Assembly (NCBI GenBank): GCA_964016885.1
Contig: OZ024745.1
Location: 130,510,001 to 130,574,000 of the forward strand
DNA from: Eledone cirrhosa
Taxonomy: Eukaryota
Direction of reading: 5' to 3'
DNA: 64,000 nt
A program made the translations under genes and the position numbers. Below, piece after piece: positions 19,876-62,842 of the stretch (position 1 is its first letter; each line of letters opens with the position of its first letter). The notes beneath the pieces were generated by a model. That model worked only from the letters and a program-made list of their open reading frames with translations, searched no databases and was not told the origin of the DNA.

Positions 19876-20065
19876 TAGTACAGCATCAACGAAGCTTTTG
19901 GCAGCAGCCAAGCTAACGAATGCAGATTCACTGTGCAGCTAAGCACTCAATGGTGAATATTATCCCAGAGTTATAACATTACGTTTCGACAGCTTTGCAA
20001 ATCAAATACAGCGACCTATAGTCGGGCCGCATTGCCATAGCGAGGAAAAAAATGGAACTCTGGAA
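19876..20065 (-). mobile_element. Family K element: short fold-back, HHR 3' half, tail
   Basis: Minus strand GAAA-CG-TA (19980-19987), arms ccagagtt/aactctgg, tail ATTGAGTGC (19943-19951). TA-flanked. Confidence 0.65.
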
Positions 20066-20087
20066 TATATATATATATATATATATA

Positions 20088-20153
20088 TAGATGAGATTCT
20101 ACAGGACTAGAACTGTTTCATTCTTTAGAAATCATCAGTTACCTCCGATTCAA
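20088..20153 (-). mobile_element. Family D rearranged copy with HHR core
   Basis: Minus strand CTGATGA-tttc taaa gaat-GAAACAGTTCTAGTC, joined to an inverted tail piece (gttacctccgattcaa). Confidence 0.8.
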
Positions 20154-20248
20154 AACTCACCTATATATATATATATATATTTACTATATATATATATATA
20201 TATATATTTACTATATATATATATATATATATATATATATATATATAT

Positions 20249-20588
20249 AAAGAAAAAGAGATGAAATCGAAAATGCAACTGGAGTCTTATTTTTTTTTTA
20301 AATATATATATTCGTTTGGTTCCTTTACCGGTTTCGCAGTTCTTCTCCTTTTCAAAAGGTGAGTTGAGATGGAGGGTCTGTGAGAAAAACCACAGGCCCT
20401 CCATCTGAACTCACCTTTTGAAAAGCAGAAGAACTGCGAAACCGGTAAAGGAACCAAATAAATATATATATTTTTTACAAAAATAAGACTGCAGTTGCAT
20501 TTTCGATTTCATCTCTTTTTCTTTATACTTTCACTCGTGTAGGACACCTCGGTTATTTTTCATTTTGTTAAAAAAAACCTCACTTTCT
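20249..20588 (+). mobile_element. Family B fold-back plus tail, copy 1
   Basis: ~135-bp arms (aaagaaaaagagatgaaatcgaaaatgcaac...gagggtctgtg) inverted, 60-nt tail, (TA)n flanks. Confidence 0.93.
20414..20451 (+). ncRNA. Minimal type I hammerhead, U3-A8 covariant core
   Basis: cctt-TTGAAAA-gcag aagaa ctgc-GAAA-CCGG-TA-aagg. All three helices pair, GUA site, ACCGGT palindrome. Repeated at 20902-20938. Confidence 0.75.
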
Positions 20589-20715
20589 AATATATATATA
20601 TATATATATATATATATATATATATATATATATATATATATATATATATACATATATATATATTTATTTATTTATATATATATATTTATATATATATATA
20701 TATATATATATATAT

Positions 20716-58335: not shown

Positions 58336-58705
58336 AGGGCGGTGGATTGGCAGTATCGGTAGAATGTCCGACAACATGCTTTGCAGCATAGAGTCAGGGC
58401 CCTTTACGTTCTGATTTCTAATCCCACCGAGGTTAACTTACCTTTCATCCTTACGGGGTCGATAAAATAAAGTGGGTCGATTTAATCGACATTCCTTCCC
58501 CAACGCTGTTGGCCATGTGCCTTTGGCAGAATCTGTAGAGAGTCGGACACCATGCTTTCCAGTATAGATTTAAGTCCCTTTACCGACTGTGTTCAAATCC
58601 CACTGAGGTTATCTTTGCCTTTCATCCTTACGGGGTCGATAAAATAAAGTACCAGTAATGCACTGGGTAATTGCTGGCCCTGTGCCAAAAGTAGACACAA
58701 TTATT
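58336..58705 (+). mobile_element. Two SINE S1 copies in tandem
   Basis: Heads at 58336 and ~58524, two central domains. Confidence 0.88.
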
Positions 58706-59008
58706 TTATTATTATTATTATTATTTCATTTATCTTGCTTTATGTTCATACGAGTTATCACCAAGTCACAACCAGTGACCTCAAGAGACAACAAAGTCCG
58801 CCATGTTCAAGAAAGAACACATATGTATATCTTTAGGTGTTTAGACTTGTGATGTATTTATATTGACATAATCTTCGTTAGTATATGGGCAGTTCCTATT
58901 AGTACTATCTGTTGATTTACTCCTATACGCGGGTTTCCTGGGATTTGGGATAAGTAATCATTAGACAACTTATGTATCATTCATAAAACGCCTACAACCA
59001 CTGGTATT
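58706..59008 (-). mobile_element. Second, short 3' copy of the adjacent R4/Dong LINE
   Basis: 58727-59000 is a diverged duplicate of 59068-59350. Confidence 0.9.
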
Positions 59009-59009
59009 T

Positions 59010-61651
59010 TTTAATTATTTTATTATTATTATTATTATTATTATTATTATTATTATTATTATAGTTGCATTTATCTTGCTTTATGTTCATACGAGATATC
59101 ACCAAGTCACAACCAGTGACCTCAAGAGACAACAAGGTCCGCCATGTTCAAGAAAGAACATACATACACACACAGGCATCTTTAGGTGTTTAGACTTGTG
59201 ATGTACTTATATTGACAGAATCTTCCTTAGTATATGGGCAGTTCCCATTAGTACTATATTTTGTATTTCTCCTATACGGGGGTTTCCTGGGATTTGCGAT
59301 AAGTAATCATTAGACCCCTTAGGTATCATTCCTAGAGCGCCTACAACCAATTTCCACATTTTTCCAATTTCTATCTCCAGGTCCTTATACTTGCTCAATT
59401 TTTTAAATGTTTTTATATATACATTCTTGTCTATAGGAACGGACATATCAATTAGCAGGCATACCCTCTTTTTAAAGTCCTTCAGTATTATATCAGGTCT
59501 ATTTGCATCTATTTTTCGGTCTGTTTGGATGCTAAAGTTCCACAAGATTGAGATTTGATCTTTTTCAAGTATGGGAGGTGGTTGATGCTCCACCAATTCT
59601 TTTGATGGGGCAGGTCAAAATGCTTACACATTATCCAATGTATGTATTGTGCAGCTCTGTCATGTCTGTTTAGGTATTCGGTTGGAGCTATAGGACTGCA
59701 CATTGAAATTATATGATCAATGGTCTCTGGTTGTTTTTTACATACACGGCATAATGGGTTGCATCCATTTTTTATTATTGGCTTGGTAATTTTTTGTTGG
59801 CAGACACTGATCTTGTGCCGATATAATCAGTCCTTCAGTCTCCGATTTCAGTCCAGAGGATGCCAACCACTGATGGGTTAAAGTTTTGTCAACATCAGGA
59901 TTGTTAGCTCGCTCTGGGTATTTTCCATACAGAGGCTTTTCTTGCCATTTCTTAGCCAGTTTCTGTAGCAGTTCTTTCTTTGCAGTTACTTTTACCTGCT
60001 TTGCTTTTTCTGTGTTTTCCATTTCAGCAGTAAATGGGACTTCTGAAATTTGTAGTTCATAGCTGTATCTTTGTACATCTTTTGTAATGGAGTATGATCT
60101 TTTGATGCTTTCCTGTTTCAAAACGAGTTTGATCATCCAATCATTTGATTCCCTTAGATATGTAGATAATCTAATTGTTGCAGTTTTCAGCGCAATATCT
60201 AACTGGATTAGCCCAAGTCCTCCTTCTTTCCTAGGGAGATATATTCTATCTGTATCTGCCTTAGGGTGATGTATTCTGTGCATGGTTAAGAATTTTCGAA
60301 TTTTTGTATCGAGCCTACGGATCTTTGTGCTTGACCAGTTGATGACATTGTAACTGTAGGTTACTACTGGTATGGCAAGCGTGTTTATGGCATCGATCCT
60401 ATTCCTTGCATTCAATTCCGTTCTTAAGATTGCTCTTACTCTGCGGTAACATTCTTTCCTTATCCTTTCCCTCATTGTCGAGTGCTTGATTCCGTCTCCT
60501 TCACAAACACCTAGATATTTGTAAGTTTCCTCTTGATCAAGTTCTCTTATCACATTCCCCCCGATCAAGATTAATGTCTGAACTTTTCAGCAGCTTTCCT
60601 CTGGTGAACGTTTAGCGCATTTATCTTGTCCAAACTCCATTTTAATGTCATCACTGAACTGCTCCACAGTGGATAATAGTCCTTGCAATTGTTCATCATT
60701 TTTTGGAAATAGTTTCAGGTCATCCATGTAGAACAAGTGATTAATGGTTTTGTCATAGATTCTATATCCATGTTTTGTTTCATTGAGCATTTTACTTAAT
60801 GGTATAAGTGCGATGCAGAATAAAAGCGGTGATAAAGAGTCACCCTGAAAAATTCCACAATTAATATTAACTTCTCCAGCTTCCAGTGAATTTGTTTCAC
60901 TATTCAAAAGGAGTGTCGTTTTCCATGTCTTCATACTGAATGACAAGAACCTCCTGACAACGGGAGATATTTTGAAAATCTCTAAACATTTTTCAATCCA
61001 ACTGTGTGGCAAACTATCGAATGCTTTTTTATAATCTATCCAAGCAATTAATAGATTTTTGTGTCTATTATGACAATCTTCCAGTATCATTTTGTTAACC
61101 AAAAGCTGATCCTTACAACCATATGAGCCTCGTTTACACCCTTTCTGCTCATTGGGAAATAGGTCATTTGTTATCAGGTGGTCATATGTATATTCAGTTA
61201 GGACTGATGTTAAAGTTTTATACATTGTGGTCAAGCAAGTTATCGGTCTGTAATTTTTGGGATTGTTTGTCTCATCATTCTTCGGAAGCAGGAATGTAAT
61301 GCCGTTAATTAGCCATGAAGGTATCTTTTCTGGCTCCTTAACTATTTCATTGGAAAGTTGGGCGAACAGCTCATGAGACTCTGTGAAGGCATTTATCCAA
61401 ACATTTGGTATTTTGTCTTTTCCTGGGGATTTCCATTTGCTGGTTTTTCTAAGAGCCAAACGCAGCTGTTCAACTGTTATATTTTCCCATATTTGTTCCT
61501 CAAGGTGAGCTGTATCTTTCATTTGTCTGTCTATCCATGGGGCATGTATATTATGAACTTTTTCTTCGGCCCAGATCTTTTCCCAGAATTCTTGCACTTC
61601 CTCCTTGGGTGGTATTGATTTAGCAGTTATTGTTGACTTGCCAATTTTTCT
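59010..61651 (-). mobile_element. R4/Dong-type non-LTR retrotransposon, 5'-truncated, three frameshifts: RT, CCHC, REL, 3' UTR, (TAA)n tail
   Basis: WKSPGKD, NYRPITCL, EQKGC, WIDYKKAFDS, GIFQGDSLSPLLF, LFYMDDLKL, YKYLG, RLYLPRKEGG-like, ETEGLI.SAQDQ, RHD, NRPDI, KYKDL. Stop at 59207. Confidence 0.95.
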
Positions 61652-62842
61652 GTATGTATGTATGTATGTATGTATGTATGTATGTATGTATGTATGTATG
61701 TATGTATGTATGTATACATATATATATATATAGGCAATGCAAGATTGAAAGCTGAATAGATACGTAGCTAGGTACATATAAAGACAGATAGATATATCCA
61801 TAGGCCAATAAAATTATAAACGATTAGGTATAGCTACATAAAGTGAGGCAAACAAAGAAAAATAGATAGGTCATTAACTTTCCATGCGTGTTCCGATGAA
61901 TCACTTGGTTCAATATTTATTATAGAAGCCATTTATTTACTTATACATTAACGTATAATTCCATTTATTTATAATGTATCTGAAATGGTCAATGCTATTT
62001 TATATATAATCGGTGACAAAAAGGGATGTACAGTTAAACCGGTGTAATTATATTAAACAGAAATGCAAAAGAAATTTGTAGCTTTACTTTCTTTACATAA
62101 TTGTTCGTTTATATGAAGAATTTATTAAAAATGAATTTGATCAAAGAGAATACCCATACATCATGTCACATTGTATATGGTAGTTATTAATTTAGCCCAT
62201 TCCGTACTTCTAGATTTCAGGGCTTTTATTCTCCTAGAGTAATTAAATTTATGGTTCTTTATGAATAAGCTTTTGTTACCAAATACAAGCAGACATACAT
62301 TCATATACAGCTTCATACTCACATATATATATATATATATATACACGTGCTCAGCTTCCTTCACATACATACAGAGAGTTTGAATGTAGTGTATAGATTT
62401 ACGTATTTAAGTACACACACATATATACATACATGCATACATATATATATATATGTATATATACACACACACACACACATAAATATTATATATATATATA
62501 TATATATATATATTATATATATATATATATATATATATATACACATATATTTATATATATATTTCTTATATTTATATATAAAATATATATATATAAAATC
62601 GGAGGCCATATTCAGTTTATTTAAAACTCCTTCATACATATTTCACTGAGTACTAGCTGCGAAACCTAAATTAAGCATTGAAAGTATGTATGTATGTATG
62701 TATGTATGTATATATATATATATATATATATATATATATATATATATATATATATATATATATGTGTGTGTGTGTGTGTGTGTGTATGTGTGTGTGTGTG
62801 TGTGTGTATGTTTGTGTGTGTGTGTGTGTGTATTATATATAT

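Follow-up and report, generated by a model that had tools for sequence, protein, structure and literature searches.

What fixes the two ends of a Penelope-like element (PLE) insertion? In a stretch of 64,000 nt from Eledone cirrhosa (GenBank assembly GCA_964016885.1, contig OZ024745.1, positions 130,510,001 to 130,574,000; hereafter the window) and in related loci elsewhere, we find a structured element, paired and clade-wide, from which both end points of Hydra-clade PLE insertions can be predicted and which apparently has not been described. Each member of the pair is a small bulged hairpin, and the sequences strongly suggest that these hairpins serve to dock the element's reverse transcriptase (RT).

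The starting point was a linear word, AYYGAGNRC, which a preliminary description of the window had placed at ten sites, mostly 30–70 nt before a 3′ (TA)n junction, in the tails of repeat families lettered A, C, D, F, G, H, I and K, in an orphan island and in a coding PLE. All ten words are present, eight of them where they had been placed and two a single base away (the orphan at 62645, the coding-PLE word at 42298), but only seven fit the literal AYYGAGNRC, those of F, C and I deviating from it. The literal word occurs 18 times in the window: seven matches are copies of A (five) and D (two), five are those of G, K, H, the orphan and the coding PLE, and the remaining six are not tail sites. 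For the positional bias, we used 97 stretches of 10 kb (970 kb) from the same genome, four of them adjoining the window, plus the window itself. The bias toward (TA)n is confirmed in this sample: 88 of 276 TNGAGYRC words are followed by a (TA)5 run 25–85 nt downstream, as compared to 3–8% for five control words, and 50 distinct 14-mers follow these 88 words. For the literal AYYGAGNRC, the count was 60/163.

The word does exist, yet it makes up only half of the signal, the upstream partner RCTC having been missed. Clustering of the flanks of TA junctions revealed RCTC 10–40 nt 5′ of the word across families, and the two together delimit a bulged hairpin whose 3′ strand is the word: RCTC, a covarying upper stem, a TN bulge, GAGY and usually RC. 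The lower stem comprises 4 bp (RCTC/GAGY), with the 2-nt TN bulge on the 3′ side; the upper stem is variable in sequence with Y-R as its first pair, the loop spans from 3 to ~100 nt, and the 3′ flank mostly reads RC-Y-N-T. The leading AY, previously counted among the conserved letters, consists of variable stem and bulge. Between families, ACTC/GAGT and GCTC/GAGC change together. A strict descriptor search returned 79 hairpins in the genome sample, and a relaxed one 125 hairpins in 28 clusters over the loci collected, a few of them probably chance matches.

Covariation was assessed in two sets. When hairpins were picked by the two words alone, without use of the upper stem, pair 1 was paired in 82 of 86 cases, pair 2 in 58 of 82 and pair 3 in 44 of 54 (each reached by 0/5000 shuffles), while pair 4 was weak, with 237 of 5000 shuffles reaching the observed pairing; ten of 115 words lacked an RCTC within 45 nt. 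The second set, an alignment of 57 sequences preselected for the first upper-stem pair, had 96.2% of its cells paired and a covariation score of 0.468 vs 0.177 (0/500 shuffles). RNAfold yields the bulged hairpin for F, K, G, I and C, a variant of it for H, and almost no fold for the orphan island. Rfam covariance models gave no match at gathering score in eight hairpin-bearing loci, neither for the hairpins nor for the hammerheads, and among the 150 matches listed of 419 in a scan of the window, all were microsatellite-like and below threshold.

Nor are the families carrying the word unrelated, as had been assumed: by motifs and by the tblastn retrieval of relatives, on which the assignment rests, A, C, D, F and I represent 3′ ends of Hydra-clade PLEs that have diverged. 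That clade is marked by DKT, CxCX5C and RW(K/R) (Craig et al. 2021, PMC8557442; here and below cited from parts of the text). Family A comes after the C-terminus of a Hydra-type open reading frame (ORF) at 6226–6318 of the window and in loci L106 and L164, and through read-through copies Hydra N-termini are connected to A, C, D, F, I and a further four families. DKT (for DKG) occurs in four of the five aligned proteins covering the motif, DKA in the fifth, and DKT again in the family I and F read-throughs; the N-terminal motif is RWK in L046 and its conservative variant RWR in other families. The full 830-aa ORF and its relatives possess the CxCX5C linker and, at the C-terminus, a GIY-YIG domain with CxxC and CxH, not CCHH, the Pfam GIY-YIG match to the Hydra-type protein being weak (E 0.65). 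Family A is tied to this CxCX5C/GIY-YIG C-terminus; for C, D, F and I, only the N-terminal half provides the tie. Hammerhead core words, some of them variant as read from the sequence, lie 5′ of hairpin 1, and the copies are flanked by (TA)n.

The linker, DKT, the N-terminal RW(K/R), an endonuclease with CxxC and CxH, the hammerhead in the pseudo-long terminal repeat (pLTR), the (TA)n targets and the tandem and inverted copies all match the published account of the clade (PMC8557442). In contrast, the hairpin, its pairing and the end-point rule are not described in the parts of that account covered here. It lists few Hydra families outside cnidarians, whereas the hairpin-bearing lineage is highly diversified in this genome, with many diverged families and, unlike in that account, 3′ untranslated regions (UTRs) of up to several kb. 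That the islands might be non-autonomous retrozymes was an idea dropped for A, C, D, F and I, because read-through copies joined them to coding ORFs. Family K, however, is possibly non-autonomous: its read-throughs (L337–L344) keep both hairpins, the second ~8 nt past the long end with a loop of ~50–70 nt, and no Hydra N-terminal motif was found within ~1.5 kb in the eight loci, bar one stray frame match.

Most read-through families contain two hairpins between the hammerhead and the start codon, the second one being located past the long end and ahead of the ATG in families A, C, F, I and K, in cluster 1, in the L037 family and in L046 and L053. Copies stop ~5–9 nt before either hairpin 1 (short end) or hairpin 2 (long end). 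This is the distance that matters; the 30–70 nt between word and (TA)n can indeed be seen, but merely reflect the gap to the second hairpin. The second hairpin was also predictable. When the long end followed by RCTCY was used as a pattern, with the partner strand left out of it, C, cluster 1, K, I and F all showed the predicted RCTC, 6–9 nt beyond the long end, and most loci fetched had the complete hairpin.

Among 159 (TA)n junctions upstream of hairpins, 97 fall within 12 nt, 69 of them at −6 to −8 nt; this peak draws on ten clusters, three of which supply most of it. By comparison with read-through references, which were loci not chosen at random, 19 of 29 family A junctions lie 6 nt before hairpin 2. 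Of 38 junctions in family C, 14 lie 5 nt before hairpin 1 and 18 lie 3–6 nt before hairpin 2; cluster 1 (33 junctions) shows 13 at 7–9 nt and ten at 8 nt, respectively, and the L037 family (21 junctions) three plus three at 7–8 nt, with 12 scattered in an AT-rich loop. The junction usually opens with TA(T), a microhomology with the (TA)n target.

The two ends are combined within single insertions. For 110 hairpin copies with an upstream TA run, an inverted arm was detectable in 49, and it was short in 35, long in one and of another kind in 13 (three of which are mis-anchored short ends); extension at one end only of an inverted insertion, the hallmark of a PLE tail, is thus what we observe (35 short vs 1 long). 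The insertion at 6082–7547 illustrates this asymmetry. Its plus arm comprises the ORF C-terminus, the 3′ UTR and a short end at ~7547, reaching 1.3 kb into the ORF, and its minus arm of ~150 nt holds the tail. With arms so unequal, the two cannot be copies of each other. Simple fold-back self-priming was ruled out for this insertion, its short-end arm being far longer and devoid of the tail.

Might the hairpins rather control expression, by acting on translation start, auto-repression or promoter activity, with the end points merely following TA-rich spacers? The spacers are AT-rich, and in distant relatives hairpin 2 sits ~30–70 nt before the ORF start, as would suit such a role. Yet the UTRs are AT-rich throughout while ends cluster at −6 to −8, family K retains both hairpins without an ORF motif in the next 1.5 kb, and the pairing of long with short arms would be left unexplained. 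As the sole function we give expression control only a slim chance; it could be a second role of the hairpins.

How far does the signal extend? A six-protein Hydra alignment retrieved distant relatives in marine sequence data, with 78 metagenome and 11 genome-contig loci at ~33–42% identity, and no Hydra relatives among the viral contigs searched. Of these 89 loci, the 73 matching near the N-terminus were scored and 70 had enough upstream DNA; relaxed counts refer to 69, L271 being omitted. With the stricter descriptor, a hairpin was present in 60/70 on the sense strand, as compared to 5/70 antisense and 1/70 within the ORF, while 200 shuffles gave 1.2 on average and 5 at most; counted by sequence cluster, 32 of 41 had one. 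The relaxed descriptor detected hairpins in 61/69 upstream regions, at least two of them in 35, with a spacing of mostly 55–72 nt. Against a background of 16%, TAT stands between −10 and −3 in 57 of 82 distinct hairpins. Of 43 repeat alignments within the same contig, 19 stop 0–5 nt before RCTC and about ten others at contig edges. The flanks of these hairpins are otherwise mostly unalignable (41 clusters among 70 regions). The hairpin can further be recognized by eye in published consensuses from coral and sea cucumber, namely Hydra-2_Amil, Hydra-1_Ajap (both hairpins) and Hydra-2_Ajap, and in degenerate form in Hydra-1_Crog (PMC8557442).

These relatives bear on whether the motif is nothing but chance or inherited similarity without function. 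The word is short and degenerate, a third of its literal matches in the window (6/18) lie off tail sites, and the matches in the coding PLE and the orphan island are probably chance or decayed. Nevertheless, strand specificity in 61/69 relatives, compensatory changes and mostly unalignable flanks speak against this reading, which is already contradicted by the strand and shuffle controls in the relatives and by both covariation tests, and which we regard as hardly credible.

Two side observations concern these sequences. Hydra-clade ORFs, some with both hairpins, also occur in bacterial genome bins (L326–L336), probably as contamination from the host animal. In addition, stem III of the hammerhead of several Hydra elements reads ACTC/GAGT (PMC8557442 File S2, in part), the same letters as the lower stem of the hairpin, and an alternative pairing between the two may be possible.

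What, then, might the hairpins do? We consider it probable that each is an RNA docking site that would place one RT such that copying starts 5–9 nt upstream. As a class of function, the earlier suggestion of a conserved cis signal for recognition or priming by RT or endonuclease is well supported, given that the ends of elements keep a fixed position with respect to the hairpin, but the signal is a secondary structure rather than a linear word. A more specific proposal, to which we give roughly even chances, is that twin hairpins, conserved from corals to sea cucumbers to this genome, bring a dimeric RT, related to telomerase, to two internal positions on the RNA, the two nicked (TA)n strands being primed on UA(U) just upstream. 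The GIY-YIG domain would nick the (TA)n target on both strands, and each nicked 3′ end would anneal to UA(U) in the spacer 5′ of a hairpin. The element's own protein would bind the hairpin as RNA, a dimer sitting on hairpins 1 and 2, and its two RT subunits would start two complementary DNAs (cDNAs) in opposite directions, which would become truncated and be joined head to head. Priming before hairpin 2 would yield a cDNA that includes hairpin 1, this being the tail, and priming before hairpin 1 one that does not; a hairpin directing a start would never be copied into that same arm. With two start sites, one per hairpin, the one-sided PLE tail would be explained.

The proposed mechanism fits what is known of PAc, a Poseidon element of Anolis, which reportedly cuts and extends both target strands and initiates internally at two positions bounding the tail, and for which a dimer is predicted (Frangieh et al. 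2024, PMC11167929; here and below cited from parts of the text). Further likenesses are the AT-rich target and a protein-binding region near the pLTR–ORF junction, which work in vitro narrowed to 172 nt without defining a motif (PMC11167929). The starts themselves differ. Those of PAc lie in an AC-rich stem loop inside the ORF, without homology to the cut DNA (PMC11167929), whereas the ones here lie before the ORF, at TA(T) microhomologies, each with its own conserved downstream hairpin. Tails also differ in length, that of PAc being short (the figure for PLEs is 30–40 bp; PMC11167929) as compared to ~60–160 nt here.

Several observations weigh against RT docking at twin hairpins. RNAfold favours other local folds for A and D. 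Family D read-throughs gave 151 pattern matches, but none of the 15 loci fetched had a canonical hairpin 2, and the short ends of this family are scattered from 5 to 17 nt before the hairpin; the pattern search for read-throughs of family H returned no match and hence neither a hairpin 2 nor a link to an ORF. No inverted arm was detectable in 61 of the 110 long-end copies, and as the arm count starts from long ends and leaves out short–short insertions, it tests the one-long-one-short rule from one side. Junction counts are counts of copies dominated by three families, and the shuffle controls for presence and covariation ignore sequence kinship. Eight of the 69 relatives have no hairpin, and by eye none is seen in two of the six published consensuses, those of Hydra-1_Amil and Hydra-1_Obim (PMC8557442). 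Lastly, G-U exceeds C-A only 20 to 10 over pairs 1–4, so that RNA is weakly resolved from DNA.

The latter point leads to a reading of the hairpins as DNA, wherein the GIY-YIG endonuclease would recognize cDNA or element DNA and fix the ends by cutting or resolving a few bases upstream. Beyond the weak G-U bias, the 3′ word is nearly palindromic, the endonuclease of D. virilis Penelope requires tail sequence for recognition (as cited in PMC11167929), and Craig et al. derive the tail from endonuclease-mediated resolution (PMC8557442). On the other hand, the short arm never includes the hairpin adjoining its end, the conserved TA(T) in the spacer suits primer annealing, covariation requires a folded single strand, and the RNA start sites of PAc already coincide with genomic tail ends (PMC11167929). 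Taken together, we deem the DNA reading unlikely. The sharpness of the ends and their fixed distance would also be expected if the hairpins directed cleavage of the RNA just upstream, be it self- or protein-assisted, leaving two template 3′ ends to be copied as in ordinary elements lacking long terminal repeats (non-LTR elements), and PLE RNA does already contain a protein-assisted hammerhead (PMC11167929). However, the conserved core is tiny, consisting of 4 bp with a bulge and some adjacent bases, and is without an Rfam match, the junctions follow TA microhomology and vary by a few nt from family to family, as expected of priming, and initiation by PAc is internal and disregards the RNA 3′ end (PMC11167929). 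Cleavage therefore appears to us quite improbable, and docking of the RT remains our preferred explanation.

Is the signal a general property of PLEs? We compared five lineages, namely the coding PLE of the window, its sister, two 775-aa lineages (L069 and L083 types) and the Hydra lineage, and within these sequences the signal is found only in Hydra-clade elements, the match in the coding PLE not being equivalent. The coding PLE (L031–L032) is a very young family with a 1217-aa ORF containing an Asn-rich insert and at least 150 matches of 100% identity or close to it. The element lacks DKT, CxCX5C and the hairpin pair; its word (42298–42306) lies in a different hairpin without an RCTC partner, and neither RCTCY nor TNGAGY was found between its hammerhead and ORF. 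This element had been counted among those sharing the tail motif, but the TA run 20 nt past the word (42327–42338) is internal, because in the copies displayed, tandem and single alike, the sequence runs on unchanged beyond it, and the true end is 42434. Of 67 junctions, 17, 5 and 8 lie ~130, 175 and 190 nt after the word, respectively, and 30 map to the internal run; the family thus has three distinct 3′ end points, not two. The word was not found in the sister family (L049/L080), nor the bulged hairpin after the hammerhead in the four non-Hydra lineages (L069 and L083 types by eye, 6–9 loci). As a side note, 3′ ends of a 775-aa lineage lie at 20261–20576, 20730–21053, 47243–47373 and 51309–51400 (L069, L151–L169), and its hammerhead-like motif seems, by eye, to have a non-canonical core.

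Small 3′ stem-loops recognized by the RT are familiar from non-LTR elements, namely eel L2 with its short interspersed elements (SINEs) and the 3′ UTR of R2. The parallel is that a small RNA structure would recruit the element's own RT and fix priming near a target-matching repeat. Unlike those structures, which are single, located upstream of the priming site and copied into the insertion, the hairpins here come in pairs, sit downstream of where priming would occur and stay out of the arm that they would direct. Non-LTR retrozymes, in turn, resemble the window islands in being short hammerhead repeats related to PLE pLTRs, yet most of the islands are not tandem arrays but 5′-truncated, inverted termini of coding Hydra elements; the parts of the retrozyme literature covered mention no such hairpin (PMC7229834; bioRxiv 10.64898/2026.07.22.740005). 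Neither was it described in the wider literature searched, including parts of PMC4209133, PMC3846280 and PMC13282606, a search that covered text rather than figures and lay outside most subscription papers and Repbase reports.

Two open questions about PLEs are how they recognize their RNA and why their insertions are inverted, with only one of the ends bearing a tail. A conserved hairpin of ~20–30 nt at a fixed distance from each end point renders RNA recognition directly testable. If true, the docking proposal would mean that an RT-recognition element has for the first time been defined for a PLE; it would directly account for the inverted structure and for the tail on one side, and would offer a two-part, portable signal for insertion at both ends. 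The RTs of PLEs and of telomerase are sister groups; by analogy, a structure positioning a short target-matching template could therefore bear on the evolution of template definition. In practical terms, the motif allows many unclassified short TA-flanked repeats to be assigned to Hydra PLEs and their true boundaries to be fixed.

The copies identified in the window are collected in the table below. In family G, a SINE-like repeat separates hairpin 1 from (TA)n. For neither G nor the orphan island was a connection to a Hydra ORF seen. The orphan island is either a decayed hairpin or a chance match. Both hairpins of family F (L353–L360) share the same deviant 3′ flank, T for RC after GAGC, which hints that the two evolve together with their protein.

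Table. Hairpins and PLE features in the window (positions of the 64,000-nt stretch).
Feature	Positions	Strand	Remarks
Family A hairpin 1	44518..44543	+	Tail of the long arm of an inverted Hydra-PLE insertion; other arm stops 8 nt before the hairpin
Family A hairpin 1, second copy	34591..34616	+	
Family A hairpin 1	14963..14988	+	Upper stem altered
Family A hairpin 1, decayed	27396..27421	-	5′ strand changed; 5′ boundary approximate
Family A hairpin 1	6122..6147	-	In the long-end arm of the asymmetric insertion 6082–7547
Inverted Hydra-clade PLE insertion	6082..7547	.	Arms of unequal length
Family D hairpin 1	28134..28154	+	Hammerhead core at 28068
Family D hairpin 1, second copy	5201..5221	-	
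Family F hairpin 1	34806..34842	-	GCTC/GAGC type, long upper stem; inverted arm stops 7 nt before
Family C hairpin 1	34418..34456	+	G-U type change in the lower stem of this copy
Family I hairpin 1	13102..13129	+	
Family K hairpin 1	19943..19971	-	
Family G hairpin 1	21320..21346	+	Same sequence cluster as K-like copies
Family H variant hairpin	51950..51971	-	1-nt bulge; inverted arm stops ~4 nt before
Orphan island	62626..62653	+	RCTC and GAGY present, no upper stem; fold −0.9 kcal/mol
Coding PLE, 5′-truncated	40692..42434	+	Non-Hydra lineage; DKS, CX4CxxC linker

The window contains further elements. Two broken non-LTR elements at 59207–61813 (minus strand) and 15937–16719 (plus strand), which we take to be R4/Dong-like, encode an RT (Pfam RVT_1) and a C-terminal restriction-like endonuclease region. 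The segment 43672–44157 (minus strand), without a Pfam match, is a fragment that looks like the C-terminal part of an RTE-type long interspersed element. A SINE-like repeat of ~190 nt is abundant and often nested (7946–8341, 8715–8913, 21377–21570 and ~15 more); ARAGORN detected no tRNA in the window, this repeat included. Finally, a further family with a canonical-looking hammerhead core is present at 7599–7675, 46655–46828 and 62845–63027.

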